A DNA stretch of 27,922 nt, taken from a virus (lineage: Duplodnaviria > Caudoviricetes). Below, piece after piece: positions 2,157 to 27,922 of the stretch. The notes beneath the pieces are model-generated. The model was given only the letters and a program-made list of their open reading frames with translations. It was not told the origin of the DNA and did no database searches. The position numbers were made by a program, and so were the translations under genes. The first letter of the stretch is position 1. Every line of letters begins with the position of its first letter. The stretch is taken from positions 1 to 27,922 of IMG/VR virus record IMGVR_UViG_3300012921_000075. One strand, 5' to 3'.

Positions 2157-2176
2157 ATCGATCTGACAGCCACATG

Positions 2177-2207
2177 AACCCGGTCAATTGGCCGGGTTTT
2201 TTCGTTT
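2177..2207 (+). terminator. Intrinsic terminator after integrase
   Basis: Stem aacccggtc-aatt-ggccgggtt running into ttttttcgttt. Confidence 0.85.
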
Positions 2208-2213
2208 GCGGCC

Positions 2214-2242
2214 ATAGATACCTCCACACACTTATTGGAGGT
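2214..2242 (+). promoter_or_regulatory. nTAnATA promoter-like motif overlapping an SD-sequestering hairpin
   Basis: ATAGATA at 2214-2220; ACCTCCA (2220-2226) is complementary to TGGAGGT (2236-2242), the SD of ATG 2247. Confidence 0.6.
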
Positions 2243-2246
2243 TCTG

Positions 2247-2657: not shown

Positions 2658-2662
2658 GGCGG

Positions 2663-4048: not shown

Positions 4049-4051
4049 GAC

Positions 4052-5392: not shown

Positions 5393-5515
5393 TGGCCGGT
5401 TGCGGAAGTTGTAATGTAATCAGGCTGCCGGCATCCGGTGGCGTCGTCGTCGGTGGTTCGGCCACAGTCACTGACTCCATTGTCGGTGGTGGCGTCGTCT
5501 GCGGTGGCTCGGCCC
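4901..5515 (+). repeat. Six (M/S)GGVV(C/V)(G/S)G(S/N/D) peptide repeats spread over two adjacent genes
   Basis: Copies near 4901, 4962, 5015 and 5074 in the first gene, and near 5434 and 5485 in the second; DNA core gtggcg(g)t/ggtggcgt recurs. Confidence 0.85.
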
Positions 5516-10915: not shown

Positions 10916-11329
10916 TTATGCCGCTCCGGCGTAGGTAATGAGTGTGGTCAGCTTCACTTCCACGTCAGCACTCTTATTGCTGTTCACTTCCATGCCGTTC
11001 TGTTCATAGCTGGTGACAAAGCCCTGGAATGTTGCGGTGTTGCCATCCGCATCTTCCACTTCCCAGAAAAGAATTGCAGCATTCGTGGAACTATCACGAA
11101 TGAGTTCGTGTTGTGTGTTGTCTGTCAAAAGGTACAGATTGAAGGTCAGGCTGCCTGGATCAGGCAGACGGCTAGGCCGAGTTTCCTTCAAAATCGAATC
11201 GAGTGAATAGGAGTCAACCGCTTCCTGTTCAGTCGGGCCTAAGTCGATGCTGTTGACCTTTGCGACCGCTGCCACAGTGGACGTGGTGCCCACTTTTAGA
11301 ATTGTTCCTTCACCGGGAATAACTGCCAT
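10916..11329 (-). CDS. Major tail tube protein
   Basis: GEGTILKV, LPDPGSLTF and ATFQGFVTSY motifs, plus position. Confidence 0.85.
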   Translation of the reverse strand: MAVIPGEGTILKVGTTSTVAAVAKVNSIDLGPTEQEAVDSYSLDSILKETRPSRLPDPGSLTFNLYLLTDNTQHELIRDSSTNAAILFWEVEDADGNTATFQGFVTSYEQNGMEVNSNKSADVEVKLTTLITYAGAA

Positions 11330-13406: not shown

Positions 13407-14702
13407 TTAGTCGCCTGACAGCGTACCGGTGCCGAGATACATCAGCGGATTGTCACCGGCGTTGACGGTGTTGCTGTCCACAAGCTGGTAGGCAGCGAAG
13501 AAGACCGACAACGTGTCAACCAGTCGGCTGTCGTCACGGATCAACTGTGGCGAACCAACAAAGCGGACCTTGTGTGCCGAGAAGTCACCAGCAACGATGG
13601 CCTTGCGTGCCTGACCAGAGGCCATTTGGGGCATCCAGTTCGAAGTCACGAAGGGCTTGCCTCGCATCGAATCGGTTGGTGCCGAGTTCAGATCAACACC
13701 CCATTCACGAATGCCACTGGTGGCGTCCACGAGGCTGTTTTCCAGACTCTCCACCGTGTTATCGTGGCCCACGAAGGCGAAGTTCGGGCTGTTACGGTGT
13801 ACCGGGTCAATGCTGTACCAGAACGCACGGATGTCGTCTGGAGTCAAATTGTTGCTAAGGCCGGTGTGACCAAGAACCACGTTCTGGAGGAAACCGGTCG
13901 GCTTGGCTGTACCGTCTGCACTCGTGATGTCTCGCAGAATCGTCCGGCGAAGACGTGTGCCCATCGTCTTGTTGAGGTGGGCCAACACGTTGGTGTTGGG
14001 GTTCAACAGATAGCCAATGCTCACCGGATGGATGGCAGTGGTCACCATGTGGTCATTCAGCGTAACACGGTCATACGTCACACCGGTCTGTGTCAAAGCC
14101 ACGTTCTGCTTCTTGTAAGCACCGTAGGTGCCGGTGTCATCGCTGGTGGCGAAGTGAATCGGCTGCTGCGAATGCTCAATCGGGCTGTTGATGATGTCGC
14201 AATACTGAAGAACTGAACCTTCCCAAGCCTTGGCCTCGACCAGTGCCTGAAACACGGAACCATTCAGCAGTTCTTCACCTTCATGATTGGTGGTGTCGGT
14301 GCTCTGGGCACGGCAGAAGAACTCCTGCGATTCCCAGTTGCAATCAACGAGTTCACAAGACCGCTTCCAAGAGTCCTGAACGTGGATTCGCTGGTGGCCG
14401 TGGAACATCCAAGCCAGAATGGCGTTGTCGATGTCCTTGCGGTTGGCTTCCCGCTTCACCTTGACGGTGGGGGCACCGAAGACCGGTGACTTCTTGCTCC
14501 CAAGCATCGACTTGATTCGTTCGCTGCGTGAGAACTGTTCTTCTTGCTTCTGCAAGAACTCAAGACGGTCAGCACCTTCTTCGCTCCGCTTGAACTCTTC
14601 ATCACTCCACACTTCACCGGCTTCCACCTTGGCATTCAAGGTCTTCAGATCGCTGGTGATGGTCTTAATTTCTTCCCGAACTGCTTGTAGGTCTGCATTC
14701 AT
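13407..14702 (-). CDS. HK97-family major capsid protein
   Basis: N-terminal coiled-coil delta domain; ADGTAKPTGF, RGKPFVTSNWMP and IVAGDFS motifs; follows the protease. Confidence 0.9.
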   Translation of the reverse strand: MNADLQAVREEIKTITSDLKTLNAKVEAGEVWSDEEFKRSEEGADRLEFLQKQEEQFSRSERIKSMLGSKKSPVFGAPTVKVKREANRKDIDNAILAWMFHGHQRIHVQDSWKRSCELVDCNWESQEFFCRAQSTDTTNHEGEELLNGSVFQALVEAKAWEGSVLQYCDIINSPIEHSQQPIHFATSDDTGTYGAYKKQNVALTQTGVTYDRVTLNDHMVTTAIHPVSIGYLLNPNTNVLAHLNKTMGTRLRRTILRDITSADGTAKPTGFLQNVVLGHTGLSNNLTPDDIRAFWYSIDPVHRNSPNFAFVGHDNTVESLENSLVDATSGIREWGVDLNSAPTDSMRGKPFVTSNWMPQMASGQARKAIVAGDFSAHKVRFVGSPQLIRDDSRLVDTLSVFFAAYQLVDSNTVNAGDNPLMYLGTGTLSGD

Positions 14703-14778: not shown

Positions 14779-15384
14779 CTATTTAGAGTGGCGGGCCATA
14801 ATTTCTTTGGACCGCTGAACTCGTTTGTATGTTTCTTCCCACAGATCGATCTCGGCTCGGCTGATGTTCGCTGTGGTGGCCTTGTAAGCCGGATTGTGGA
14901 CGATGCTGAAGTCTTTGATTCTTTTGACCTTTGACACGATGCTGTAGAACCGGCCATCTTTGCCACGGTGCTTGGTTGCTGTTCCGTCACCCTGAAAGCT
15001 TCCACCTTTGATGAAGTGCTTTCGCAGCTTCGCCAACACGTTCAGGTGAACGGGGTCTTCTCGGTCAACCGGTGCCTTGAACTTGATGCCTTTCTCATCA
15101 CGTCGGAAAGTCACCGTTCCGGTTGCCGTGCTTCCAATTACGTGGCTGGAATTGTGCTCGTAAAGAAGTGGAATGTCTTGCTGTGTCGCCAGTGCGTTAT
15201 CGAATGCTTCTTCCATGACGTGTTCAATCACTCCGCCGGGAAGCTTGTATTCGGTGCCCGGCGTTCCGTCATAGAACACCACGGCGTAGCCCTCTAGGAA
15301 CTCTTGGCCGTCGTTCTCACTGCGGATCAGTGTGACTGGTGCCTCATAAATCAGTTCAAGGTCTTTGTGACTCGTTAGCTCCAT
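14779..15384 (-). CDS. HK97-family prohead protease
   Basis: LEGYAVVF, LLYEHN, GGSFQG and FSIVHNPAY motifs; ATG at 15384 overlaps the portal end. Confidence 0.9.
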   Translation of the reverse strand: MELTSHKDLELIYEAPVTLIRSENDGQEFLEGYAVVFYDGTPGTEYKLPGGVIEHVMEEAFDNALATQQDIPLLYEHNSSHVIGSTATGTVTFRRDEKGIKFKAPVDREDPVHLNVLAKLRKHFIKGGSFQGDGTATKHRGKDGRFYSIVSKVKRIKDFSIVHNPAYKATTANISRAEIDLWEETYKRVQRSKEIMARHSK

Positions 15385-16940
15385 AGCTTCACCGCCAATT
15401 CTGTTGTGTCCCACTTCGAAAGCACCTCTGGCCGTTGTTCCGGCAACACTGCCTCGAACTCTTGCCTGAAACTATCTAGGGACTCCAGCACCAAAGCTGT
15501 ATCCAGTCCTTCCAAGGACTCTTCAATGGCTGCAATCTCGATCTGGCCAGACTTGGCGAACCTTCGCTTCAGTCGTTCCAAGACGTTCGTTGTCAGCTTC
15601 ACAGACTTGTCCAAGGAATCAGAACGAGTGACTTCCATGTTCACTTCCTGCGTCTCGTTCTGATCCTTGGCCGGATCGATCTCGGCCACCGGTGCTGGTG
15701 GAACTGGTGCCGGCGGCGGTTCTGGATGTTGGCTGTCTGGTGCATCCCACGCCACGACATTGGACGGAAGAACGTAGGTGCCCTTCCGCTTGGTTGGCAT
15801 GTTGGATAGCTGCCTCGTCTCTTCAAATGACCTTCGGCCGGACAAGAACTGCTTCTCTTCAAGTGCATCCTGTAGTTCAGGGTTCGCCTGATGAATCGCC
15901 TTGCGGTTGAATTCGATGTAGTGGGTTTTTCGCTCCTGTCTCGTCAGCAGTTTGGCGGAAAGTTCGTTTTCAACGTTGCTGAAGATGGCGTCATAGGTGT
16001 CTGACAGCACGGCCAAGTTCTCTTCAGCTAGTGATCCATAGCTTGCCGAGTCTCTGATGCCGATTTTGTTTCCTGGAAGTCCCAAAACCACGGCCTTGTC
16101 TCGGTTGCTGTTGTTCTGGGCCTCTGACCACTGGGCTTCCTCGTTGTTGATTGGCAGACTTTCAAGTTCTGCATTGCCGAACAAGGTCAACATCTTGTGA
16201 CTGTTGGCCAATCCCTCGTGCCATGCCTGAACCTGGGTCTTCAGTTCTTCTTTTTGCTCCGGTGTCAGCCACTGCGGGATTCGCAAGACCTTGTTGATGT
16301 GGCTGCCGTGCTTGAAATAGATGCAACCATACTTTGTGATCGCAGAACCAAGGCCGAAGTTGTTTTTCATCGTCGAAACAACGTCAACACCCTCCGTTCC
16401 GTCACCAAGTGCTAGGTCTCGGACGTGCAAAATGTCCTGACTCGGAAACACAATTGGGCCATTCGTGGTGTTCACGGCGTAGTAGAGGCCCACAAGACGG
16501 CCTTCTTCGTACTCAAACGTTGGAAACACCGCCCGATTGTCCACGTTGTGGAGGGCCACCGGATCAAAGCTGAAGTCTCGTTCAATGATGCCAACGGCGT
16601 TGCCATAGCAAAGGTCAGCACCGAAGGCTTGGAAGAACTGGAAGCTGGTCGTGAACGGGTTTGCCATGCCGTTCAGAAGCTCATAGACGATGTGTTCACG
16701 GTCCTTCTCTCGGCCATCGTCTGGAAGATGCTTGAACAGAGGCTTCGGCACCTTGGCCAGCGTGTTCGCAATCAGTTTCACGCCTCGATACCAACTCGGT
16801 TGACCGAGAACCGATTCCTTCGTCACGGATTCGCCCGTGTCGGACCGATTTGAATGGCCGTTCAGGGTCGTCATCAGCGACATGTCAGCCGGATAGTAGT
16901 TCCGCTGGTCTGTGATCTGTTTCGGGGGGATATGAACCAT
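15375..16940 (-). CDS. HK97-family portal protein
   Basis: IANTLAKVP, ANPFTT, YGNA and ILHVRD motifs; start 16940 supported by CTACATA-CCGT-ATG. Confidence 0.92.
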   Translation of the reverse strand: MVHIPPKQITDQRNYYPADMSLMTTLNGHSNRSDTGESVTKESVLGQPSWYRGVKLIANTLAKVPKPLFKHLPDDGREKDREHIVYELLNGMANPFTTSFQFFQAFGADLCYGNAVGIIERDFSFDPVALHNVDNRAVFPTFEYEEGRLVGLYYAVNTTNGPIVFPSQDILHVRDLALGDGTEGVDVVSTMKNNFGLGSAITKYGCIYFKHGSHINKVLRIPQWLTPEQKEELKTQVQAWHEGLANSHKMLTLFGNAELESLPINNEEAQWSEAQNNSNRDKAVVLGLPGNKIGIRDSASYGSLAEENLAVLSDTYDAIFSNVENELSAKLLTRQERKTHYIEFNRKAIHQANPELQDALEEKQFLSGRRSFEETRQLSNMPTKRKGTYVLPSNVVAWDAPDSQHPEPPPAPVPPAPVAEIDPAKDQNETQEVNMEVTRSDSLDKSVKLTTNVLERLKRRFAKSGQIEIAAIEESLEGLDTALVLESLDSFRQEFEAVLPEQRPEVLSKWDTTELAVKLWS

Positions 16941-16956
16941 ACGGTATGTAGCCTTG

Positions 16957-18531
16957 TCACCAAATTTCCACGACTGATTGGCCCTGAGGGACAACAGCAC
17001 TTACGGTGTCCTTGTCCAACCAATAGGAAAGAGCAATTGCTGTAGCGTCTACGCTGTCGATTTTGTTTATGTCCTGAGACTTTTTGATGTCCAAGCGGTC
17101 ATATCGATCAAGCTTAGGAACACAATTGTCCAAGTGGTTCAGATAGATGGGATTATTGTTGTGCCTCAGTTTTCTTTCACGAAAAAGACCATCCATCATG
17201 GTGAAGCCCGGTCCCATTCCCCGCTGTGACTGCGTCACTTCCTTGCAGTTGATGCCGTATCCTTCAAGCAACTGACGACTTGGCTGGAAGTTCGTCGGGT
17301 CATACCTCAACTGAAGCACTTGAAACTTGAACGTCTCGGCCTTCAAACGTTCCACCAAGTACAAGTGATCGATGGTGTCTCCCGGCGTCAGGATCAGATT
17401 CGACTTTGGATCATTCGCCCACGCTCGATACGGAACGTGGTGTTTCTTCTCCCACTCTTCAGCCTTCTTCTCGGGAATGGCGAACTTGGGAATGACGTAA
17501 TAGAGGTCATTCACCTTGCAAACCGTGACATACGAATAGATGTCATAGGACTTCGCAGCATCGACCCCGATGACCACGGGCATCCCATAGAATCGGGACT
17601 CGTCAAATTCCTCGTGGCAAGCCTGAATGATGCCCGGCGCAAGCCAGTTCTCTGGTGCCCCTACGATCTGATTCAGGTGAAACGTTCGGAACTGAACCGA
17701 ATCAGTCGGACTGTCTTTGACTTTTGCGTACTCTTCCCGGTAGAACTCCTGCGGAACTAGTTCTGGGCAGGCTGGCAGATTAGGCCACCAGTTCGATTCG
17801 TCCTTCCAGTCTGCGAACTCTGGCACTCCATAGTGAATGGCGAACGTCGTGATGTCGTTCACCTCCGGTTCTTTGCCATCCAGCAAGTTCCGGCTTCTCA
17901 CCCAGCAGTCATAGGCCGGACAAGTGTGGTTGTAGTTGGCGTGGCTGATCGTCAGCACCAACGAGTTCGGCCGGGCCATGCCGGCGTGTTTCACCTTGGC
18001 CCACGTATTGGCGGCGTAGGCAGGGTGAAGTTCAAAAAATTCATCGATAATCAGTAGATCGCAATTGAAACCTGACTTAGCGTCACCCTTGCCGCTGATG
18101 ATTTTCAATTCGGATTTGGACACCCGGTCAACAATGGTGCCCTTGTCTTTGCGAAACCAAAGTCGCTTGTTCAGGGTCTCGTTGCCGGCTGCGAACCCTT
18201 CAATGGCGGACCAGATTTCATCCGTCTGTTCTTTAACGCCAGACAGAATGATGGTCTTGGTTTTCGTTTTGCCGGTGACTTTCCATGCTGCGATTAGTGC
18301 GAGCAAAAAACTTTTTCCAGACTTTTTCGGGCACCAAATGTGTCCGGTCCTGAACCGTAGCTTTTTGTCTCGTCTTCGCCATCCCCAAAGCGGTTTGATG
18401 ACTCCTTCGTACTGCCAATCCAGCAAATCAATTGAGCAATACTTCCGGGCAAAGAGTTTGATCTGCTTCGGTTCTGTCTCGTCTAGGTAGCAGCCTTGTT
18501 CAATCGCCTTGGCATCACTCGGAAGCTTCAT
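16957..18531 (-). CDS. terL: Terminase large subunit
   Basis: Walker A PKKSGKS, Walker B LLIIDE, nuclease motifs IGVD and KIDSVDA. Confidence 0.95.
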   Translation of the reverse strand: MKLPSDAKAIEQGCYLDETEPKQIKLFARKYCSIDLLDWQYEGVIKPLWGWRRRDKKLRFRTGHIWCPKKSGKSFLLALIAAWKVTGKTKTKTIILSGVKEQTDEIWSAIEGFAAGNETLNKRLWFRKDKGTIVDRVSKSELKIISGKGDAKSGFNCDLLIIDEFFELHPAYAANTWAKVKHAGMARPNSLVLTISHANYNHTCPAYDCWVRSRNLLDGKEPEVNDITTFAIHYGVPEFADWKDESNWWPNLPACPELVPQEFYREEYAKVKDSPTDSVQFRTFHLNQIVGAPENWLAPGIIQACHEEFDESRFYGMPVVIGVDAAKSYDIYSYVTVCKVNDLYYVIPKFAIPEKKAEEWEKKHHVPYRAWANDPKSNLILTPGDTIDHLYLVERLKAETFKFQVLQLRYDPTNFQPSRQLLEGYGINCKEVTQSQRGMGPGFTMMDGLFRERKLRHNNNPIYLNHLDNCVPKLDRYDRLDIKKSQDINKIDSVDATAIALSYWLDKDTVSAVVPQGQSVVEIW

Positions 18532-18865
18532 CAGCCTCCGGTTCGTCCGTCTCGTCTAATTCCAAGTCCAACTCTTCCTCGGCCTTGGTCGCTTGCCACA
18601 AACCAAGTCTGCGGCCAATGCGTTCGTACTGCTGGTGTGCCCTGGTAGCAATTCCTAGGGCATCGTGTGGCTTCCCGTTCAGGATGAATGACCGGGACTC
18701 TTTCACGTAGCCTTGGACCTCGTCATGGGCTGAACGGTAGGTCTCGTAAGCATCCGCCATCATGGCGAGTGAATCACGGTCCCGGATGCCGGGATTTGCC
18801 TTTAGAGTTCTGGTGAACCACTTCTTTCCGACGGGTCCAAGCCAGTGTGGTGCTGATGTTGCCAT
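18515..18865 (-). CDS. terS: Terminase small subunit (P27-like)
   Basis: APHWLGPVGKKWF, DRDSLAMMADAY and RRLGL motifs; overlaps the terL start. Confidence 0.8.
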   Translation of the reverse strand: MATSAPHWLGPVGKKWFTRTLKANPGIRDRDSLAMMADAYETYRSAHDEVQGYVKESRSFILNGKPHDALGIATRAHQQYERIGRRLGLWQATKAEEELDLELDETDEPEADEASE

Positions 18866-18893
18866 GTCCTATATAAGTCGGACCAAGTCATTT

Positions 18894-19094
18894 TCACTCG
18901 CCATCGTCCGGTTTCTTTTTCAAAACACATCCATGCCGTGCTAGGAACTGTTCTCTGGTCTCTCGACGATGTGGCTTCTTGAGGGCTTCCTCAAGCTGCT
19001 TGCGGTATTGCCTGCGGTATTGGTCGATTTCAGGCCAAATGGCCCGTAAAGCTTCTGCTAGGGCTTCTCTATCGTGTTCTGTGGGCTGTGTCAC
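18894..19094 (-). CDS. Hypothetical protein
   Basis: GGAGG SD before GTG 19094; co-oriented with neighbours. Confidence 0.5.
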   Translation of the reverse strand: MTQPTEHDREALAEALRAIWPEIDQYRRQYRKQLEEALKKPHRRETREQFLARHGCVLKKKPDDGE

Positions 19095-19153
19095 TGGCCT
19101 CCAATTCTGGGGTCATTTTTGGGCGGAAAAAATGTGCAAGTGGCCGACGCTCG

Positions 19154-19495
19154 TCAGTCTTGGGCGGTTGTATAAAAATCGGCGTTCTCCTTGCATTCAG
19201 GGCAGCACGGGACTATTCCACGCCTTACACAGCCACCGCCACCTTTCCCGTCACAGATCGTTTCGAAGCCATCCTCATTCGACACTCTGACTACCTCGTC
19301 ACTATCGGCCCTGAATATCTCTTCGCTGCCGTCGATGTAGGTGACTGTGACGGAATCAACCGCTGTATCTGGTGGCAATGGTATGCCGCCTACATCGTTT
19401 GTAATCAGCACCATTCGGCACGACTTGTGGAACAAGGCACCATCTACCACTTGCCAGATACCACGCACAATGAACAACACCATATCACTGAACAT
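19154..19495 (-). CDS. Hypothetical protein with a connector-like segment and Cys cluster
   Basis: AAGGAG SD before ATG 19495. Confidence 0.5.
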   Translation of the reverse strand: MFSDMVLFIVRGIWQVVDGALFHKSCRMVLITNDVGGIPLPPDTAVDSVTVTYIDGSEEIFRADSDEVVRVSNEDGFETICDGKGGGGCVRRGIVPCCPECKENADFYTTAQD

Positions 19496-19503
19496 ACTTC
19501 TCC

Positions 19504-19689
19504 TTAGTTAAACTGCTCCCTACGCATGACCACCAGCATGTCCGCCACCAGTGGTAGTGTCACTTCTTCCTCGTTGCCCATCTCTTCTACATAGGCAAGG
19601 ATTGTCCTTGCGAATCGGGCTGCTTGCATGGTGGTCAGGGTAGGGTCTGCCTCCATGACTAGGGCCTTGATACTTCTAAACGTGTTCAC
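19504..19689 (-). CDS. Hypothetical protein
   Basis: AAGGAG before GTG 19689, overlapping the upstream gene's end. Confidence 0.5.
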   Translation of the reverse strand: MNTFRSIKALVMEADPTLTTMQAARFARTILAYVEEMGNEEEVTLPLVADMLVVMRREQFN

Positions 19690-19924
19690 CTCGCTCCTTT
19701 GCTGCTTCCTGTGCTTCTTTGAGGGTTGCAAAGTAGAGGTTCGCTGCGAACTTGTTCAGTTCCTCCCATGAACAATACTTGAACTCCTTCCACGGTTTGA
19801 AGCTTTCAGTCCACCCGACATACACCGGTTCGTCCACCTCGAAGTGAAGTTCCACATTCTTTAGGTGTTTTGGAAGGCCAAGTCCATCGCTCAACAACTT
19901 GCCAAAATGATTGGCTACTACCAT
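19676..19924 (-). CDS. Hypothetical protein
   Basis: AGGAG SD and ATG directly after the HNH gene. Confidence 0.6.
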   Translation of the reverse strand: MVVANHFGKLLSDGLGLPKHLKNVELHFEVDEPVYVGWTESFKPWKEFKYCSWEELNKFAANLYFATLKEAQEAAKERGEHV

Positions 19925-19931
19925 GTTTCTC

Positions 19932-20189
19932 CTATTCCTTCGCTGATTTTGCGTTGTGGCACTGGATACACAGTGGCTGCCAGTTGGTCACCTCCCAGAA
20001 CAACTGGAGGTTCCCTTTGTGGGGCTGCTTGTGGTCAGTGACTGAGGCCACATTCCCACACAACCAGCACTCTGGATGGTTGTCTAGGAAGGCCCTAGAT
20101 GCTCGTCTCCACTCCCTGAGGGAATAGAGACGAGTGTGATCGAATGTGCCTTTGAACTTACTGGCCCGGTTCATGGGCCTCGATTTCAT
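19932..20189 (-). CDS. HNH endonuclease (HK97 gp74-like packaging cofactor)
   Basis: CWLC...DHKQPH...NWQPLCIQCHNAKS. Confidence 0.93.
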   Translation of the reverse strand: MKSRPMNRASKFKGTFDHTRLYSLREWRRASRAFLDNHPECWLCGNVASVTDHKQPHKGNLQLFWEVTNWQPLCIQCHNAKSAKE

Positions 20190-20481
20190 CCAGCAATCTG
20201 CGGATGTACTTGATTTGTTCTCGGCTGATGCCGGGCTTGCCGCTCACCACCGTGGCGTAGTGGGCTTCCTGTAGTGCCACAACTGCTACGCTTGGTCTAT
20301 GGTCGTCTTGGGAAACTTGGCCCAGACACTTGGCAACCTCAGACGCTGGAATGCGAAGATGACTTGTCGGACTTACGTTCAGTAGCTTCCCCTCCGCTAC
20401 CAGCTTTTTGACGTGCGAGGCGCTTACTTCCAACTGCTTGGCGGCTTGTGCCGTGGTTAACAGCACTTCATTTGTTCTCAT
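20158..20481 (-). CDS. Excisionase-like HTH protein (HTH_17 type)
   Basis: LLTTAQAAKQLEVSASHVKKLVAEGKL...LRIPASEV. Confidence 0.8.
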   Translation of the reverse strand: MRTNEVLLTTAQAAKQLEVSASHVKKLVAEGKLLNVSPTSHLRIPASEVAKCLGQVSQDDHRPSVAVVALQEAHYATVVSGKPGISREQIKYIRRLLDEIEAHEPGQ

Positions 20482-21230
20482 TCGCCTCCCAGTTCGTCGG
20501 AAGCCTGCGGTAGGTTCTCAACTGCTCCCAGCTTCAGAACTGCTTTTGCAAATTCGTCGCTGCTGCTCGTGGGAATCTTCGACACCTCGTCAACGATGTA
20601 TGCCTTCTCTTCCTCGTCTGCGAAGGTGAAGGTGAACTTCCGATAGCTGGGCCATTCGCTGCCGTCATAGATTTTGTTGTCCATGACCACATAAGTGACC
20701 GGCTGCGGCTTGGTCAGGAAGTCTTTGATCGACTGGGCCGCTTCGAACTCAGCTTCCTGAGTCGGGGCCTCTAGCACTTCCATCAGAAGTGATTTTGGAA
20801 TCGCTTTTTCTGTGGAGTATGCCTCCTGAAACCCTCGCTCGATTTCGTCCAGTCTGGCGATTTGTGCCGCTTCCAGCAGCTTCGTGGCTTCAGCATCGTC
20901 CACTGGAATCACTGGCTGTGTCTCGAAGGGTTCGCCTGCCGAGTTCGTTCGGACTTCGCCTACATCGAACTTGTTGAATACCGGTTCGGCACCTTCTGGC
21001 AGCTTGGCACCTTTGCCGTCCAGCAAGTTCCCTTGGCTGTCGATGTCCAGTAGTTCCACTACCTTGTTCTGTTCTTCTTCTGGCAGCGACTTGCACTGTT
21101 TGAGAAGGGCCGCTCGGTCTTGCCTGAGACCATGAATCATTCGATCAACTTCCCGCTGTCGCAGCCCGGCCCTAAGTGCCACGAAGCCAATAATCGCCAA
21201 GACCACCGAAATCACAATTCCACTTACCAT
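20478..21230 (-). CDS. N-terminally membrane-anchored protein carrying segments similar to the tail protein at 7638-8444
   Basis: AAGGAG SD; hydrophobic MVSGIVISVVLAIIGFVAL followed by basic residues; see findings. Confidence 0.75.
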   Translation of the reverse strand: MVSGIVISVVLAIIGFVALRAGLRQREVDRMIHGLRQDRAALLKQCKSLPEEEQNKVVELLDIDSQGNLLDGKGAKLPEGAEPVFNKFDVGEVRTNSAGEPFETQPVIPVDDAEATKLLEAAQIARLDEIERGFQEAYSTEKAIPKSLLMEVLEAPTQEAEFEAAQSIKDFLTKPQPVTYVVMDNKIYDGSEWPSYRKFTFTFADEEEKAYIVDEVSKIPTSSSDEFAKAVLKLGAVENLPQASDELGGE

Positions 21231-21248
21231 GTTTCTCCTTTTTGATTT

Positions 21249-21467
21249 TTACTCTGCTGGATAGTTTTCTGTGTCACCGTCTTCGAAGTCCCCCGGGACT
21301 CGTTTTGGTTGTCGCCGCTCCCATGCAAGGAAGATGTGGCGAATGAAGGCCGAAACATTCATTCCTTCCACTTCGGCGTGAGTGTTCAGCCGCTGAAGCA
21401 TGTCTGGAGGCATACAAATGCAAAATGGTTTGCTCAATCGATCATTCTCTGGTCTTGGTCTAGCCAT
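21249..21467 (-). CDS. Ribbon-helix-helix (CopG/Arc-like) DNA-binding protein
   Basis: MARPR...FCICMPPDMLQRLNTHAEVEGMNVSAFIR. Confidence 0.75.
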   Translation of the reverse strand: MARPRPENDRLSKPFCICMPPDMLQRLNTHAEVEGMNVSAFIRHIFLAWERRQPKRVPGDFEDGDTENYPAE

Positions 21468-21660
21468 TTTCTGCTCCCTCCACATCTTTCAAAATTGCTT
21501 CGATGATCTCCAAGCCCTCAGTCATCAGGGCGAGATACCGGCGAACCGTTGCCGGTGTATAGACGGTCAATCGACTGTAACCGTCAGATAGAAGGGCCTG
21601 ACTTCGCAACACCTCCCTGAGGGTGTCTTCTGCTCGCTCAGGCCGTTTTTGATACCTCAT
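21460..21660 (-). CDS. Hypothetical protein
   Basis: ATGA-coupled in the operon; GAGGG SD. Confidence 0.55.
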   Translation of the reverse strand: MRYQKRPERAEDTLREVLRSQALLSDGYSRLTVYTPATVRRYLALMTEGLEIIEAILKDVEGAENG

Positions 21661-21839
21661 TCACCCTCTTCTTCTGGTGCCACGATCCTGGTCACTTCTT
21701 GCTGATTGAATATGCCCAGTCGGCCAAACTCTAAGGCCGTCTGGCATAACCACAAATCGTGGTCAATCATCGCCAATTGGCGTCTGAGTGAAGCCAAGTC
21801 AGGATCAGTCTCGGCCTCGTGCGTCCAGTAGTTTTGCAT
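21657..21839 (-). CDS. Hypothetical protein
   Basis: Preceded by CTAGATA-GTTT-ATG. Confidence 0.6.
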   Translation of the reverse strand: MQNYWTHEAETDPDLASLRRQLAMIDHDLWLCQTALEFGRLGIFNQQEVTRIVAPEEEGE

Positions 21840-21907
21840 AAACTATCTAGTGTATGATAGTGCAATATAATGCAATAATTTCTGGATTCTGGAAGTTTTG
21901 TGTGGTG

Positions 21908-22111
21908 CTACTTCCTGACGCTTGCTCGGTGCCACTTTCCACAGACTTCGCAGTGATACGGACGCATGCCTTCGGCCTTGGCCACTTCTTCCGTGGCATA
22001 CTGCTTCTTGCTGTAGCACGATCTCCATTCCACGTAGCCCTTGTCCCTCATCATGGCTCGTGCTGCTTTGGGAAGCTTGCTGTAGTCGATGGGCTGATAC
22101 CGCTTCTTCAT
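21908..22111 (-). CDS. Small putative Zn-binding phage protein
   Basis: C..KKQY...A and RPYHCEVCGKWH pattern; ATGA overlap with the upstream ORF. Confidence 0.65.
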   Translation of the reverse strand: MKKRYQPIDYSKLPKAARAMMRDKGYVEWRSCYSKKQYATEEVAKAEGMRPYHCEVCGKWHRASVRK

Positions 22112-22254
22112 TTGGCATCGTCCGCTTCGAACCGGGCAATGGCTTCAGCGAAGCCCTTTGCAATTTCCTCGATTGCTGCCTGTGCCTTTTTCAGTCCCTC
22201 GACAAACTGCTTCGTGTCCAAAGTCAACTGTGTTTCAATCTCGCCTACTACCAT
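22108..22254 (-). CDS. 48-aa protein resembling a tape-measure N-terminus, not in the ORF track
   Basis: GGAGG SD; MVVGEIETQLTLDTKQFVEGLKKAQAAIEEIAKGFAEAIARFEADDAK; its stop overlaps the next ATG. Confidence 0.7.
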   Translation of the reverse strand: MVVGEIETQLTLDTKQFVEGLKKAQAAIEEIAKGFAEAIARFEADDAK

Positions 22255-22366
22255 GTGCCTCCATTGTTTGGGTCTTTTGCATTATTTAGAGTCGCAAACT
22301 CTATATAAATGGTCATGTGACGGTTCCTTTCTCCCGTCATGTGGTTGTTAGATGTTCCTTGAAAAT

Positions 22367-22411
22367 GCCCCGGTAGGTTTAGTGATTTTTTCCTACCGGG
22401 GTTCTTTTTTT
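22367..22411 (+). terminator. Intrinsic terminator with the T tract on the + strand, possibly bidirectional
   Basis: ccccggtagg / cctaccgggg stem followed by ttcttttttt. Confidence 0.7.
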
Positions 22412-22424
22412 GGACCAACACCTT

Positions 22425-23405
22425 CTAGGCCGCTCCTGGCCACACAACGTGCTGAAGCATTCTCAGTTGTGGTGACTCGATTCTGGGCACCGTATAGACA
22501 TGCTGCGGCACTTCCAGCGGCGTTGGAATCGCTCGTGGCCAAGTCACCGGCTGCTTCGGTCGTGGCTTCGCTGATGACTTCTTGGCGGCGTGGATGTCGG
22601 CCCAGCCCTCGGCCTCTAGCTCGGCTCGTGGCTTCGTAAAGAAGTTGCCCCATTCCAGCATGTGGCGGATGTAGTGGCCGGACTTAAACAGCAGTGGTGT
22701 CTTGTAGTTGATGTCTTTTGTGACGTAATGACACCACTTCTGCTCGTCTTGGATCGCTGCGAAGTGAGTGACTTCGGCGTCCTGGCGATTGGCTGCTTTA
22801 CAAAAATAGGTTTTTGCTGTGGCCTCGTCTAAGTCCGTGGAAATTGTGCAATGTAAATGGACCAAATTGTCTGGTGTAATTTCTCGGAATAAAACCGCTT
22901 CTAAGCGGAAGTCATGTAGTTTGCAGTAGCGTGCAATGCTTCGGCGTGCGGCCTCGTTCCATTTGGACTGTTGTTTCGGTGTTTTCCAGACCTTGAACTG
23001 GATGGTGCCTTCGAAGTTGTACCTTTTGTACTTGTTGTTGGCCAACAGCATCACGCATTGACGCTTGGCATGCTTACGGCGTGACTGGAGGGAATCGGTA
23101 GGTCCGGTGAATCCCTTTGGTGATGTTTCTCGTGGCTTCGATTGGTATAGGGTGAACTCTTGTGGAGGTCCGAAAAAGCCCTCTGAAGGTGCCTTTTTAC
23201 GGCGTGTCCTAGAAGAGTTACCGTGTTTTCGCCATATAGAAGGCGGGGGCTGTTCTGTCTTGCGCCCTAATTTGTGATTTTGTATACTCGGCTGCATCAA
23301 TTCTTTCACCAGCCGGGCCAAGGTTGCAATCTTTTGGTCCGGCTGTTTTTCTTCTCTTGTGATTTCTCCTCGTGGTGACTGGGCTGACCCTGACACAGCA
23401 GCCAA
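22425..23405 (-). CDS. HUH endonuclease, rolling-circle Rep-like protein (start uncertain; ATG 23297 possible)
   Basis: Ordered motifs GTIQF (I), REITPDNLVHLHC (II, HUH) and HYVTK (III, YxxK). Confidence 0.7.
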   Translation of the reverse strand: MAAVSGSAQSPRGEITREEKQPDQKIATLARLVKELMQPSIQNHKLGRKTEQPPPSIWRKHGNSSRTRRKKAPSEGFFGPPQEFTLYQSKPRETSPKGFTGPTDSLQSRRKHAKRQCVMLLANNKYKRYNFEGTIQFKVWKTPKQQSKWNEAARRSIARYCKLHDFRLEAVLFREITPDNLVHLHCTISTDLDEATAKTYFCKAANRQDAEVTHFAAIQDEQKWCHYVTKDINYKTPLLFKSGHYIRHMLEWGNFFTKPRAELEAEGWADIHAAKKSSAKPRPKQPVTWPRAIPTPLEVPQHVYTVPRIESPQLRMLQHVVWPGAA

Positions 23406-23484
23406 TCTGATGTATCTAGGAACTCATTGCTAGATTAAATAATACACTGTCATAGTTTTCTGGAATTATTCTCGTATAGAAACG

Positions 23485-23509
23485 AAAAAAGCCCGGATTA
23501 AACCGGGCT
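23485..23509 (-). terminator. Intrinsic terminator
   Basis: gcccgg-attaaa-ccgggc stem followed by ttttttcgttt on the minus strand. Confidence 0.8.
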
Positions 23510-23541
23510 GTGTAGTTCGGAAAAAGTTGTTTTCGGTGCCG

Positions 23542-23829
23542 TCACTTCTTCGCTGGCTTTTTCCCTCTGAAGGCACTCATCCCCTTATCCCGCTGCAATG
23601 CCTGTTTGATTTCCTTGGCGGTGTCGGCGGTCCACGAGATGTTTGTCAGGAAGTCGATGTCTCTGACGGTCGTTCCCTCGGGCAAGCTCTCTAGGAATTC
23701 GACACTGGCCTGGAAGTCACTGAGTTCGTATTCCAGAACGTGGTCAGCATCGCCTTGCTTCAGCTTCAGATAGAGGTAGTCGGCCAAGGGTCCGCATTCG
23801 TCGGGAAGTTCAAATTTGGGCTTTCGCAT
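23542..23829 (-). CDS. Hypothetical protein (95 aa)
   Basis: GGAG/AGGA before ATG 23829; followed by a terminator. Confidence 0.6.
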   Translation of the reverse strand: MRKPKFELPDECGPLADYLYLKLKQGDADHVLEYELSDFQASVEFLESLPEGTTVRDIDFLTNISWTADTAKEIKQALQRDKGMSAFRGKKPAKK

Positions 23830-23942
23830 TGTCCTGACTCCGGTGTTGTGATCGAAACACCGGCGTCTACGTACAACCTTACTTGCCCCCTCGTGAATGC
23901 CGAGAAAATGCGGGCGACTGAATTTGTTCACTACTCAGTACA

Positions 23943-24206
23943 CTAACCCCTGAGTAGGTCATCAAGCCATCGTTCGGCGTTGTCGTCCCATCGCTTTTTC
24001 ACATCCCGAACGTTCTTTGGGGAGACTTCGATCTCGTAAACGTCCCGGATGAACTCAGCAACTTGTGCCGGTCCCGGCTTCAAATCGGGTTGCTTCGCCA
24101 GATACGAAAGAGACCACCGGATGCAACTGGCAAGGCTTACGTATTCGCCTTTGGCTTTCATCGCCTTAGCGGCGGCTGGATCAATGAAGGCTCGGTCTCG
24201 TGGCAT
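23943..24206 (-). CDS. Putative HTH DNA-binding protein
   Basis: GPAQVAEFIRDVYEIEVSPKNVRDVKKR has an HTH-like pattern. Confidence 0.5.
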   Translation of the reverse strand: MPRDRAFIDPAAAKAMKAKGEYVSLASCIRWSLSYLAKQPDLKPGPAQVAEFIRDVYEIEVSPKNVRDVKKRWDDNAERWLDDLLRG

Positions 24207-24215
24207 CCCACCAGT

Positions 24216-24407
24216 TTAATCGAGGAAGTCTTCCTCGTCAGGCGTTTCAAAGAACTCGTGCATGGCCTCTTTGAAATCGGCCGGCAAGTTCAGCCGGTCC
24301 ATCGCTGCCAAAAAGCCGGCAATGTCCAGATCGTCAGAAGCCAGCTTGGCGATAAGTTTCTTCGCCTGCGGAAGGTCATAGTCCGTCGTGTTCATGGCTG
24401 CACCCAT
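24216..24407 (-). CDS. Small acidic hypothetical protein, first gene after the RNA element
   Basis: Two in-frame ATGs (24407 and 24395) flank the repeat GGGTGCAGCC. Confidence 0.55.
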   Translation of the reverse strand: MGAAMNTTDYDLPQAKKLIAKLASDDLDIAGFLAAMDRLNLPADFKEAMHEFFETPDEEDFLD

Positions 24408-24498
24408 TAAACGAAAAAACCCCTAGGGCCTCGTTCGGTGTGCAGCCGAGTGGCGAAACCCTAGGGGGTCCAAAATGTTTGTTGATCGGCTGCACCCC
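24396..24498 (-). ncRNA. Candidate P4 CI / P1 c4-like antisense-attenuator element
   Basis: Direct repeat ggctgcaccc at 24396-24405 and 24488-24497; its complement at 24440-24449 sits at the apex of a hairpin (24420-24467) ending in U6. Confidence 0.55.
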
Positions 24499-24567
24499 TC
24501 AGGATTCGCTAACCATTTGCGATGTAAAGCAAACCGGGTCCAGAATTCCCGAAATAGCGGTAGGGGC

Positions 24568-24595
24568 TTGTTTCGTCAGTGGGTGGATATATGAT
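24568..24595 (+). promoter_or_regulatory. Candidate sigma70-type promoter inside the right phage att arm
   Basis: TTGTTT (24568-24573), N16, TATGAT (24590-24595). Confidence 0.45.
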
Positions 24596-24618
24596 GTTGG
24601 TTCACCCACGTAGGCGTC
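24571..24618. other. Right att junction: phage arm 24571-24601, TC core at 24602-24603, host arm
   Basis: Inverted-repeat partner of 514-544; portal-like sequence stops at KDAYVG. Confidence 0.85.
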
Positions 24619-25242
24619 TTTCACCATCCGCAGCCGCAAGGTGCGCTTTGCTCCTCCTTCCATCCACTTTTCGTACCAGGCCGGGAATGCCCGGGCGAGC
24701 AACGCACAACCGTAGGGATTGCTGCGCTCGGCATCGAACGTGGTAACCAAAGCCTGGGGAGCCAGAAACGTGGATTCCTGCCCTCTGTCGCGCATGACGA
24801 AGCCGGCGAGGCGATCGTCCGCAAACAGCAAGCGGCACTTGCGCGGCTCGTGGTCCTTCAGGCGATCGAACTCGATCGCGCCATCGAACTCGCCGCCGCG
24901 AGCCTGGCGAAATTCAATCTCGAACGGCATGAATCCATAGTGCTTCGTGCGCAGTAACTGCTGCGCACTCGCCGACCAAAGTCGACGCCACTGCTGCTTC
25001 ACCCAGCGATTGAGTTGTGCATTGCGGCCAATCACGTCCACTTGAGCCGACATCAGCAGACCATTTCGCGCCCCCAGGCCGATGCGCACCTGTGGGTCGA
25101 ACCGCATCTCGTCGGCGATTTGCAAAGTGAAGGGCGGCAAGTCGGCCGGCTGATTCGGCGTGAGAGCCGGCGACGCTTCGCGAAGCCGGCGGCGCGAAGT
25201 CGGCTTGGGAAACAGCGAACGCAGCGAACGGAGCAGTTGCAT
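24604..25242 (-). pseudogene. 5' half (213 codons) of interrupted DUF935/Mu gp29-like portal gene; reads through into phage DNA to a stop at 24499
   Basis: DPQVRIGLGARNGLL, YGFMPFEIEF and NPYGCALLARAFPAWYEK resemble DUF935 portals. Confidence 0.8.
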
Positions 25243-25306
25243 TGGAGGATCCTTACAGAGAGTGGGCAGTCTGTTTCGATGCGGGGCGAAGCATCACGTA
25301 CGTCGT

Positions 25307-25801
25307 TCAGTCATAGAAGCTCTTACGACCACCGGCCGGCGGATTGCCCGTGCTTGTGTCGGGCACTCGGCGGATCTTGGCATATCGCTGGGCCAGGTCG
25401 GTCGTGAAGTTGATTACGGTCGGAATCGTTTCATGGCGGTTGACGGCCTGGGGCACCACTCGGGTACCAGCCGCGACATCCCGCAGTGCGGCGAGCGCAG
25501 TGACGCGCTGAGCTTCGAAGGAGTTCGGAAGAGGCTCGCCTTGGCGTGACGCCAGCAGAGCGACCGCCAGGAGAGCGTTGACGCTGCGACACCAGCTGTT
25601 CGGCACCAGATCAGCCAGCGTGTAGCGAACCTCCAAGTACGAATTCATTTCGGCAGCAGCCGCTTCGATTGCCCAATCGATATGAGCTTCCTCAACCGTG
25701 CTGAGAACTGCGTCGGCATTGTCATCTGCTGCCCCGAGCACACTGACCGGGTTCCAAAGCGATTCCAGGTCGCTGCGCGTGCAGTAAGTTTGAGTGGTCA
25801 T
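25307..25801 (-). CDS. Mu gp36-like (DUF1320) head-completion protein
   Basis: YCTRSDL, AIEAAAAEMNSYLEVRY and ALAALRDVAAG motifs. Confidence 0.85.
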   Translation of the reverse strand: MTTQTYCTRSDLESLWNPVSVLGAADDNADAVLSTVEEAHIDWAIEAAAAEMNSYLEVRYTLADLVPNSWCRSVNALLAVALLASRQGEPLPNSFEAQRVTALAALRDVAAGTRVVPQAVNRHETIPTVINFTTDLAQRYAKIRRVPDTSTGNPPAGGRKSFYD

Positions 25802-25968
25802 GGTTCAGGCCTTCATGTGGATGCTCGGCTTTGACGCCGAATGTGCCGGCGGTGAGATTGAGCTTCTCGACGTTCCATGGAAGCGTCCTCATGAGCGGAG
25901 GACGCTTCGTTCAGTCCTCACCCAGCTGGAGAGGACGTTGCGACATCGGCGGGCGATACACCCCCCGA

Positions 25969-27075
25969 CTACGCGATTTGCCCGTAGGCAACTGCGTCGG
26001 GAAGGTAAAGCGCCGGCAGTCCATTGAAGACAGCGCACAGTTCCCAGCCGCTCGGATCGTGGGTCGGATAGGAGTAGGGATAGAACCCAAACTGCTCGTT
26101 CCGCGGGCCGCCGGGCCCTTCGGTCACGATCTCCGAGCCCTCCAGGTACTGCACCCAGCGCGGAGAAGGTTCCGGGAAGAAAGCCGCGTGATCGTCCTCG
26201 ATCAGCTTCGTGAACTCTTCGTTCACGCCGTTCCAGACACTCAGGCCGTAGTCGATCACGTGGAACGTGACCCAAGGTAGTGCTCGCAACACGGCGGTGA
26301 ACTCGCCGGCGCCGACGCGCTTCAGAGACTGCCAGGCCACATCGGCCGAACCTCCCTGGGCCTGCACCTTCGTGTTCTCGAGCACATGCCGCCAACCGGT
26401 GCTGGTGAGCACCACATGGGCGAGTCCCATCCCAGTCAGCCGCACCATCGCGACGTTCATATTGTGCAACTGCTGCGGAATGTCGGCTGCGGAGTTCGAC
26501 CAGAGCGTGTCGAGGATGCCCCCCTCGCCGAGCATGTCGAGGCTTCCCTGGTTTCCGGTGGGAATCTGAAAGCCAACCGAGGTTCCCGTGCCACTGAACG
26601 AATGCCGCATCTCATCACCGTCGTTCACGAACACGTACGAGCCTCGCAACATGGCGGCACTTTGGAACTCGATCAGGTTCGCGAACCGCTGTGCGAGGTA
26701 GACCTCCTGGCGAGTGATGTAACTTTCGCCGTCGTGATCGAGTTCGTCCACCGAGCGGCCGAGCGCCCGGCGGTTCAGCATCTCTTCGTCGAGCAGCGGA
26801 ATGATTTCCGTCGAGCGAGGGAAGGTGCCAGTGACGTTTCGAATGTGCTGCGGCGCTTGCCGGCTGGCCGATTGCGCGGGCATTCGCCCGACTGCAATCG
26901 ACTGAGTTGCGCGAATCACGTCGTACGAAAAATTGCGCCCCGATTGCCGAGCGACATTCTTGCCGGAGAAACCCCAGCCGAATAATCGCTGCAGCGAAGT
27001 GCCGGGCAGTTCGAGCTGCGAGACGGCCTTCAGAATGGTTTTTGGAGCCAAAACCTGTGCGGTAGGAACACCCAT
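25969..27075 (-). CDS. Major capsid protein (lambda gpE-like) of the outer cluster
   Basis: AGGAG before ATG 27075; RFANLIEFQSAAMLRG, WSNSAADI and C-terminal GLPALYLPDAV; follows a decoration-like gene. Confidence 0.75.
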   Translation of the reverse strand: MGVPTAQVLAPKTILKAVSQLELPGTSLQRLFGWGFSGKNVARQSGRNFSYDVIRATQSIAVGRMPAQSASRQAPQHIRNVTGTFPRSTEIIPLLDEEMLNRRALGRSVDELDHDGESYITRQEVYLAQRFANLIEFQSAAMLRGSYVFVNDGDEMRHSFSGTGTSVGFQIPTGNQGSLDMLGEGGILDTLWSNSAADIPQQLHNMNVAMVRLTGMGLAHVVLTSTGWRHVLENTKVQAQGGSADVAWQSLKRVGAGEFTAVLRALPWVTFHVIDYGLSVWNGVNEEFTKLIEDDHAAFFPEPSPRWVQYLEGSEIVTEGPGGPRNEQFGFYPYSYPTHDPSGWELCAVFNGLPALYLPDAVAYGQIA

Positions 27076-27139
27076 GACAAACTCCTGGAAAATCAGCGTT
27101 GAAAGGAAAACTGAAGCGGTGAACGAGCGCGGAGCAGGC

Positions 27140-27922
27140 TTAGCTGACGGTTGCCGTTGTGCCGCCAAGATTGGTCACGACCCACCGCAGTGTGTCGGTA
27201 GCGATATACATGCACTCGACGAGCACCTGGCTGCCGATCTTCTGAGAAGCGGTGCTGAACGCCACTTGGGATGCAGTGCTGCTTCCTTTGTGGACGATAT
27301 TGCTGAGCGCGCTGGCAATCGCCAGGTCGGCATCGGCGGTCTGCACAAAGCGATAGGCGAGGCCGTTCTGCGGCGTCGGTAGCGTGAACGTGACCGCTGC
27401 CGTGGCCACGAAAAGCAGCCCGTTATCTCCGGCCGTGACGATGTAGTTCGCTCCCTTGCGATACACGCCGCGCGGGTGCATGAGCACGCCAACCGCCGCG
27501 GCCTGATCGCGATCGAAGACGAATCGCGAGGCCAATTGCTGCTTGCCGCGCGGGTCGAGCCCGACAAGCTGGCTTTCGCGCACCAGGCCGTGCACGAGCA
27601 TTTGCGTGAAACGATCGGTGGCAACTCCCTCAAGGAGCATGCTCTGCGGCTTCTCCAGCACGCCGGCTGCAATCTGCTGACCATTGTTTGCGTCGGGATC
27701 GTAGATGCTGGCCTTTCCGCCGGTGTCCTGCACGGCGAGGACCATACCGCCTCGCAAGACGGTCTCAGGCGAGTTCCCCGGGTCGACGGCCGCTGAATCG
27801 ATCGTGACCGATCTTGTGGCGACGAGATCCTGCCCCCGGCGGCCGACCCAAGTGACTTGCACTTCCTGCGATTCCACGGCTGGCTGGAGCCCTGGAACAT
27901 TTCCTGTGGTGAACTGCGACAT
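27140..27922 (-). CDS. Head decoration-like protein with a C-terminal beta-rich extension
   Basis: VLRGGMVLA...IYDPDANNGQQIAAGVL resembles head decoration proteins; lies directly upstream of the capsid gene. Confidence 0.65.
   Translation of the reverse strand: MSQFTTGNVPGLQPAVESQEVQVTWVGRRGQDLVATRSVTIDSAAVDPGNSPETVLRGGMVLAVQDTGGKASIYDPDANNGQQIAAGVLEKPQSMLLEGVATDRFTQMLVHGLVRESQLVGLDPRGKQQLASRFVFDRDQAAAVGVLMHPRGVYRKGANYIVTAGDNGLLFVATAAVTFTLPTPQNGLAYRFVQTADADLAIASALSNIVHKGSSTASQVAFSTASQKIGSQVLVECMYIATDTLRWVVTNLGGTTATVS

Follow-up and report, generated by a model that had tools for sequence, protein, structure and literature searches.

HK97 gp15 is reportedly a superinfection exclusion factor tied to the tape measure protein, and TP-J34 Ltp is reported to be an exclusion factor linked to the tape measure protein. 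Tab is a small accessory protein of the Pseudomonas prophage JBD26, and its gene lies among those for the terminase; it keeps other phages from assembling their tails by acting through the C-terminal part of the tape measure protein (PMC10884400). The Tai systems of satellites and prophages give rise to tailless particles, with escape mutations in tail-tip proteins; their targets are the central fibre J or the needle, and some Tai systems include a counter-defence that is expressed in the lytic cycle (PMC11364771). A protein that may act in a comparable manner, P0001 (250 residues), is encoded at 20478-21230 (minus strand) in a 27,922-nucleotide stretch of DNA (IMG/VR record IMGVR_UViG_3300012921_000075, Caudoviricetes), hereafter the window, which is a provirus record estimated by CheckV to be 38% complete. 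P0001 is an orphan protein, a part of which matches a tail protein of the same window, P0002 (268 residues; 7638-8444, minus strand). An earlier reading made from the DNA letters alone (the sequence-only reading) had described P0001 as a membrane-anchored protein carrying three segments of the tail protein in reversed order; both open reading frames (ORFs), with these coordinates, and the strings that it quoted are present in the DNA.

Residues 65-113 of P0001 match P0002 far beyond chance. A profile of the tail-protein family scores P0001 at 24.6 bits, and still at 23.9 bits with P0002 left out, whereas none of 5000 composition-preserving shuffles of P0001 reaches the score in either case (maxima 10.8 and 11.1 bits). 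In the HMMER alignment, profile positions 241-266 correspond to P0001 residues 65-90 with about 18 bits (17.7-18.1), and positions 125-140 correspond to residues 96-113 with 3.6-3.7 bits. These two stretches of P0001 abut without a spacer, in an order swapped relative to that in the tail protein, and they coincide with the windows ranked first and second for conservation among 87 family sequences. They lie in a module of residues ~57-113 (20892-21062, minus), the sole part of P0001 with relatives. The first half of the module, residues 65-90 (20961-21038, minus), matches the C-terminal motif of the tail family, LLDGxGxxLP...VFxxFxV, with a hhalign E-value of 2.1e-5 over 27 columns; the second half, residues 96-113 (20892-20945, minus), matches the middle motif, NSAGDPF..P...DD. 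This second segment (NSAGEPF in P0001) is weak by itself (3.6 bits), yet it coincides with the top-ranked conserved window of the family, and it extends to ~23 residues against other family members (local score 46-48).

Pairwise comparison of P0001 and P0002 gives moderate values. The first segment (LLDG...) is found by BLASTP at E 2e-5, and its Smith-Waterman score of 64 stands against a shuffle mean of 35 (standard deviation 5.5), a score of at least 64 being reached in 1/3000 and 2/3000 shuffles. The pair ranks second in the all-against-all comparison of 40 window ORFs; the pairwise evidence alone is borderline because 780 pairs are implicitly scanned. The DNA match of 38/53 bases is as the sequence-only reading gave it, and among 300 codon-shuffled genes the best 53-nucleotide window averages 29.5 matches with a maximum of 33, none reaching 38. 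The tail profile finds nothing above -0.4 bits among the remaining 38 window proteins, no other partial match above 5.7 bits among 14,291 six-frame ORFs of related phage loci, and no second partial copy of the tail protein in 24 other records.

The relationship is not that of a simple paralogue. A collinear match over the ~278-position tail-family profile, on which true members score 70-333 bits, is absent from P0001, and the P0001 gene does not lie directly downstream of the tape measure gene, unlike the gene for P0002, the family member L043:9800-10636 and the member in contig G025. Profile comparison in both search directions shows that the homology is real and non-collinear, as the sequence-only reading had proposed from the swapped order, which the profile scores against 5000 shuffles bear out. 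Of its three reversed segments, the two abutting ones (~18 and 3.6 bits) stand, and the third, RKFTFTFADEEE (residues 196-221; 20568-20645, minus), falls away at about -2 bits. Aligned to profile positions 25-50, this third segment has scores of -1.6 and -2.1 bits; none of the other module proteins contains it, and it is rejected as a chance similarity. The same applies to the weaker echoes that had been pointed out, namely a Walker-B-like string of the terminase, DWEGNLL of the product of 4052-5392, and RGFQ: the terminase and the 4052-5392 protein are outside the ten best local scores of P0001, and all local scores of P0001 below that of the tail protein are at most 44, within the shuffle range. 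The all-versus-all alignment with shuffled controls, suggested earlier as a check, in this way puts the P0001/P0002 pair second of 780 pairs and leaves the echoes within the shuffle range. That the two remaining matches are themselves a coincidence of short motifs is hardly credible; such a view can draw on the pairwise match, only ~5e-4 per pair with 780 pairs implicit, and on the fact that the third segment and echoes are chance, but the profile scores beat 5000 shuffles, the matches fall on the top two conserved windows, and there is an independent module family with reciprocal profile matches.

That family consists of five proteins. An exhaustive phmmer search of 1.84 billion representatives finds three further proteins, which match residues 56-121 of P0001 only (E 3-7e-4, 40-52% identity), and a fifth member, L086:414-659, comes from a contig scan. 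P0001 (250 residues), P0023 (136 residues), P0024 (84 residues), P0025 (162 residues) and L086:414-659 (81 residues) carry the same unit of ~55-65 residues in the same order: a ..LD..G.. lead-in, LLDGKG..LP.G..PV(F/Y/W), a short spacer and NS.GEPF(D).Q/P.., with 15 columns invariant across the five. P0001 and P0023 are related with a pairwise E-value of 1e-12. The unit is N-terminal, C-terminal or internal in proteins of 81-250 residues. A profile of the five modules, run against 14,954 ORFs, returns at E<=0.3 only module and tail-family proteins (best tail match 2.6e-7), its first half aligning with the C-terminal motif and its second half with the middle motif of the tail family. The module has no counterpart in Pfam, PHROG or PADLOC; a literature text search for its motif strings gave no match, and one on permuted tail-protein domains brought up nothing but papers on 'circular permutation' of whole genomes. 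No match came from scans of viral contigs that used P0001, P0023 and P0024 as queries, and a word-indexed search with the whole of P0001, as well as with residues 58-118, returned only P0001 itself. Judged from these alignments, the module is an established, recurrent and rare small family and a new mini-domain. As a separate observation, P0025 contains at residues 13-26 a weak extra copy of the 'LP.GA.P(I/V)(F/Y)' piece (3.7 bits).

Because five proteins carry one unit in one order, the stretch is not an accidental collage. The sequence-only reading had proposed a multi-epitope decoy against host sensors, and had suggested looking for variable sets of virion fragments in homologues. Only two abutting segments are real and they form one module, and the four relatives carry this one module in one order; since no variable virion fragments are found in homologues, the multi-epitope version is not supported. 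A narrower form, in which the module as one epitope unit is a decoy for a host defence sensor recognising the conserved motifs of the tail protein, is improbable. It would fit with the copying of the most conserved, hence least escapable, stretches of the family and with the strong acidity of the soluble part of P0001 (46 D/E versus 26 K/R), acidity being typical of mimic proteins; no sensor is known or seen, P0001 has no PADLOC match, and the homologues lack varied virion fragments, all of which speak against it. The other possibility named in the earlier reading, an assembly inhibitor, is the one favoured here.

P0001 is composed of a membrane anchor, a helical linker, the tail-motif module, a helical region and a small alpha/beta C-terminal part. 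The N-terminal anchor, residues 1-20 (21171-21230, minus), is predicted from hydrophobicity and from a helix in the structure model: residues 1-19 have a mean Kyte-Doolittle hydrophobicity of 2.76, and the model has a helix at 3-20, in keeping with the earlier description of a membrane-anchored protein. No K/R, and no charged residue at all, precedes the helix, and 4 K/R are present in the 16 residues after it, from which the positive-inside rule predicts an N-out/C-in topology with the bulk of P0001 in the cytoplasm. P0001 belongs to no Pfam, PHROG or PADLOC family (PADLOC 2.0.0, 0 families at E<=0.01), and PADLOC on P0001 together with 14 neighbouring and other window ORFs gave nothing beyond two weak helix-turn-helix (HTH) matches and one marginal methyltransferase match (E 0.0096). 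The ESM Atlas gave no usable feature matches for P0001, and its structure rows have template-modelling (TM) scores of at most 0.33 (the Atlas model itself has a predicted local distance difference test score, pLDDT, of 0.58). The anchor brings in superinfection exclusion at the envelope, in which a periplasmic module would jam the tail tip or tape measure protein of an incoming related phage. P0001 is a membrane-anchored prophage protein, and TP-J34 Ltp and HK97 gp15 are reported examples of exclusion factors, membrane proteins or lipoproteins, that are linked to tape measure proteins; but from the charge distribution the bulk of P0001 is predicted to be in the cytoplasm, and neither an anchor nor a signal sequence is present in the other four module proteins. 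This explanation is very improbable.

The tail family to which P0002 belongs is uncharacterised. Homologues of P0002 number 20 in the protein collection, and a scan of viral contigs run with the smaller family alignment A2 located the family at 75 loci; the scan gave no match when P0002 alone was the query. In 3/3 phages examined, those of the window, of L043 (member L043:9800-10636) and of G025, the gene of the family member comes directly after the tape measure gene. The middle motif, D.NG.PILNSAGEPY at residues ~109-127 of P0002 (8064-8120, minus), is the rank-1 conserved window at both 7 and 17 residues in the 87-sequence family alignment, and the C-terminal motif, LLDGTGKQLPEGGQPKF.. at residues ~231-257 (7674-7754, minus), is the rank-2 window, their conserved cores being ILNSAG(DPF) and (V)LLDG.G..LP, respectively. 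The two motifs are ~120 residues apart in the tail protein. P0002 has no Pfam or PHROG match, nor has any of the 20 family members a PHROG match. Its AlphaFold2 (AF2) model has a pLDDT of 87.2, and Foldseek gives 0 matches to the PDB at E<=0.001. By VIA, the best match is to a tail completion protein (Z 6.0, root-mean-square deviation 3.5, 79 aligned residues), a value in the noise range stated for the tool; the matches at Z<=6.0 are tail completion and baseplate chains, and the lambda tail-tip chain 8iyk_M is matched at Z 4.4, all likewise within the noise range. The 14 BFVD matches at E<=0.001 are all uncharacterised phage proteins. For the distal tail protein (Dit)/tail-tube superfamily, which was considered for P0002, these comparisons give no sequence-family match and fold similarity at noise level. 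Because its gene follows the tape measure gene, P0002 is read from gene order as a tail-tip protein at the distal-tail position.

A PDB sequence-profile search with P0002 gives only an E-value of 0.7 over 17 residues, to Kunitz inhibitors (4an6_A). The middle motif, D.NG.P(I/V)LN.AG..(F/Y), here resembles the N-terminus of plant Kunitz-type trypsin inhibitors, probably as a convergent hairpin motif.

In the AF2 model of P0001, residues 61-100 have a pLDDT of 78-93, the whole protein averaging 54.6, and only five sequences went into the model. The module is thus shown in the model as a compact beta-rich unit, confidently predicted, with short strands and isolated bridges, and the same pattern recurs at both motifs in the model of P0002. 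Because the DSSP patterns are alike in the P0001 and P0002 models, the two distant motifs of the tail protein may pack into one unit there. If they do so, the module would be a circular permutation of that tail-protein unit with ~110 intervening residues removed.

The following mechanism is proposed, as a tentative account that is favoured over each alternative but is less likely than not: P0001 would be a membrane-anchored accessory protein that competes for the partner of the tail protein and so blocks or delays tail-tip assembly at the cytoplasmic face of the membrane. The conserved unit of the tail protein would be its binding interface with an invariant partner, the module would present the same surface, and by competition it would capture that partner. 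The competition would block, delay or time tail-tip assembly, and the anchor of P0001 would hold it at the membrane on the cytoplasmic side. Candidate partners are the tail tube, the next tail-tip protein and the tape measure protein, at its end; in the window the last of these (8460-10253, minus) is a candidate partner of P0002 itself. Competitive mimicry is favoured because the most conserved part of a protein is most plausibly its contact with an invariant partner, to which that part, as a free copy, would bind as well. The block of tail assembly also has a precedent in Tab and Tai, prophage proteins that block it. A wider version is doubtful, namely that phages make sequence-permuted free copies of the most conserved interface of their own tail-tip protein as dominant-negative mimics, here tethered to the inner membrane, which capture the partner of that interface and block the tails of related, competing phages or the premature assembly of their own tails.

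Several points weigh against this competition. The module is rare, with 4 matches including P0001 in the 1.84 billion representatives, and a separate module gene is present in just 1/40 other tail-family-bearing records, that of G025; it was found in none of 401 sampled genomes from the planctomycete-like phylum of one metagenome-assembled genome with the tail family, a search that had no positive control. Therefore the module is not a general part of this tail system. The anchor is present in P0001 only, the other four module proteins having no anchor or signal sequence, and so tethering is not intrinsic to the role of the module. P0025 lies in a late operon, and P0001 has the orientation of its neighbours, to which it is apparently coupled; a competitor made in the phage's own lytic growth would poison its own tails unless it were specific or timed. 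The partners are candidates only. A complex prediction of P0002 with P0001 residues 50-125 has a score of 0.00 and an uncertain partner fold, and speaks neither for nor against the proposal. The role of P0002 is known from gene order alone and its fold matches are weak, and motif contact within the tail protein is read solely from DSSP patterns.

Genomic context is known for 2/5 module proteins, the other contigs being 1.1-4.6 kb long or without context, and in both cases (the window and G025) the module and the tail family are found in one phage. In G025 the P0025 gene, L081:3121-3609, lies between the large terminase and portal genes, its start falling within the stop region of the former; the large terminase gene is itself preceded by an HNH gene and a small terminase gene of the same Pfam type as that of the window, and a tail-family gene directly follows a tape measure gene of the window's PHROG. 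This context would fit a helper in assembly, a chaperone or placeholder whose module transiently holds the site on the partner until the tail protein arrives, in the case of P0001 at the membrane: P0025 overlaps the terminase stop within the late structural operon, and P0001 is encoded a short way ahead of the packaging genes, with the same orientation. Against such a helper, 39/40 other tail-family records have no separate module gene, including 4 that are at least 90% complete by CheckV, and the module is therefore dispensable for building this tail type; the helper is rather unlikely. Five further module-profile matches in those 40 records are inside the tail genes themselves.

The rarity of the module bears also on a different explanation, a shared building block: an old small beta-rich domain would have been split by an insertion in the tail family, and P0001 would use it for a task unrelated to tails, e.g., for binding a ligand in the envelope or cytoplasm. 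The diversity of architecture among the module proteins (N-terminal, C-terminal or internal; 81-250 residues), the absence of the module from 39/40 other tail-family-bearing records, and the resemblance of the middle motif to the N-terminus of Kunitz-type inhibitors (E 0.7), which means that such hairpin motifs can recur, are all in its favour. On the other hand, both contigs of known context carry the tail family, though it has just 75 loci in the viral contig collection; the module profile matches essentially only tail-family proteins in ~15,000 phage ORFs; and the residues conserved in the tail family are also kept in the module. A shared building block is accordingly possible, if on the unlikely side.

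As for the origin of the module, that of P0001 is about equally close to distant family members and to P0002 (11-14 identities of ~26), and it matches the family consensus (VF..F.V) at least as well as it matches P0002. The module family has features of its own, e.g., the invariant K in LLDGKG, and in G025 the tail protein has divergent motifs while the module is closer to the consensus. The equal closeness to distant members together with these features argues for an established lineage and not for a fresh copy. In segment 1 (7689-7739 versus 20976-21026), 9/11 residues shared by P0001 and P0002 use the identical codon, against an expectation of 3.96/11 from the codon usage of the window and 46/190 (24%) in comparison with 28 other members, which may reflect a short gene-conversion tract between two genes of one genome. 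Taken together, the alignments suggest that the module of P0001 is an established lineage, perhaps with a short conversion tract. A recent copy of the P0002 gene was also considered and is only weakly supported: the codon identity speaks for it, but variable positions differ by 2-3 bases and distant members are equally close.

The P0001 gene is located ahead of the packaging genes, with ~1.6 kb between it and the small terminase gene, which has the same orientation; the tape measure gene is ~10 kb downstream of P0001. AGGAG is found 5 nucleotides ahead of the ATG of P0001, and its stop codon overlaps the start of the next gene as ATGA. This next gene (20158-20481, minus) encodes a winged-helix/HTH_17 protein (PF12728 and PF21531), is likely, from the overlap, to be translationally coupled to P0001, and is followed by an HNH gene. 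Immediately upstream of P0001, the ORF list has a 78-residue gene (21249-21485, minus), the product of which has no family match in Pfam, PHROG or PADLOC and has, by eye only, a ribbon-helix-helix look. A scan of 18800-24600 gives one promoter-like site, at 22309-22281 (minus) upstream of the gene 21843-22163, and none directly upstream of P0001; a strong terminator-like hairpin is located at 23490-23509 (minus) after the gene 23542-23931. The hairpin and the promoter-like site (22281-22309) may mark the start of a transcription unit that includes P0001. The gene shows no GC anomaly.

Annotation of the window genes indicates a minus-strand structural module of the siphovirus type. It comprises the genes for the small terminase (18515-18865), the large terminase (16957-18531), the portal (15375-17000), a protease, listed between the portal and the major capsid protein, the major capsid protein (13407-14702), connector proteins, the tube protein (10916-11329) and then chaperones, followed by the 597-residue tape measure protein (8460-10253; phrog_9959 at 1.3e-84 and PF20155) and, directly after it, P0002. 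The winged-helix protein of 20158-20481 shares 14/23 residues with residues 187-209 of the tape measure protein (pairwise E 3e-5), and this pair is the top pair in the all-against-all comparison of the 40 window ORFs. It may reflect a helix-turn-helix-like stretch in the tape measure protein, or may be a second short sequence common to the P0001 cluster and a tail gene.

Two further blocks of genes are of note. Upstream of the HK97-type module, 24499-27922 (minus) holds a second set of head genes, which encode a Mu-portal-like piece of 247 residues, a Mu gp36-like protein, an E-type major capsid protein and a decoration-like protein; this set points to a tandem of two phage-derived elements, or to a remnant, inside a single provirus call. 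A plus-strand block at 552-6255 is oriented opposite to the tail genes and encodes a large serine recombinase (552-2156), a protein weakly like the podophage GP4 fibre protein gp80 (2235-2657), a glycosyltransferase-9/TylF methyltransferase fusion (2663-4048), a 446-residue protein without assigned function and a Laminin_G_3 protein (5359-6255); the functions of this block, which faces the tail module, are possibly receptor binding or modification of the host.

What is new here is a rare mini-domain which, by sequence comparison, is a segment-swap relative of the conserved core motifs of an uncharacterised tail family. Even without the link to tails a new small domain is defined. With the inferred packing of the two motifs, it would also be a clean natural example of how a swap of segment order can make one continuous mini-domain out of a structural element whose parts are separate in sequence. 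If the module is a copy of a binding surface, it provides a probe for a tail family that has 75 viral contig loci and no named relative, and its binding partner is likely to be the partner of the most conserved surface of that family. If the competition proposed for P0001 is true, the protein would exemplify control of assembly, between phages or by a phage on itself, via mimicry of a virion protein. Permuted mimics of this kind, if real, would represent a new class of assembly-interference protein that employs virion-protein mimicry and not an unrelated inhibitor fold; Tab and Tai are not described as mimics in the accessible parts of their reports (PMC10884400; PMC11364771).

Among described systems, superinfection-exclusion factors resemble P0001 as membrane-associated products of prophages with a functional link to the tail or tape measure proteins of related phages, and P0001 has a membrane anchor. 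They act on the incoming phage outside the cytoplasm, whereas the bulk of P0001 is predicted to be cytoplasmic, and no membrane or lipoprotein superinfection-exclusion factor is known to share sequence with a tail protein. Tab is likewise a small prophage accessory protein encoded near terminase genes, and the mechanism favoured for P0001 is of the same kind. The gene arrangement of Tab is not that of P0001, whose gene precedes that for the small terminase by ~1.6 kb on the same strand, and the available text on Tab contains neither a similarity to a tail protein nor the word 'transmembrane' (PMC10884400). The relation between P0001 and Tab is therefore put forward by analogy, as a proposal that P0001 may work like Tab, not as membership in one group. 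The Tai systems are similar in that proteins of mobile elements act on the tail tip; their targets differ from the protein encoded after the tape measure gene, and virion-protein mimicry is not described in the accessible portion of the report (PMC11364771). With regard to the tail family itself, the two motifs are ~120 residues apart and in the opposite order in the tail protein, and P0001 has an anchor and helical regions where the tail protein has its N-terminal domain and, separating the motifs, a beta-rich core. Both hallmark motifs of the family are nevertheless present in the module of P0001, including the invariant or near-invariant L, D/N, G, G, L and P of the one and N, S, A, G, P and F of the other.

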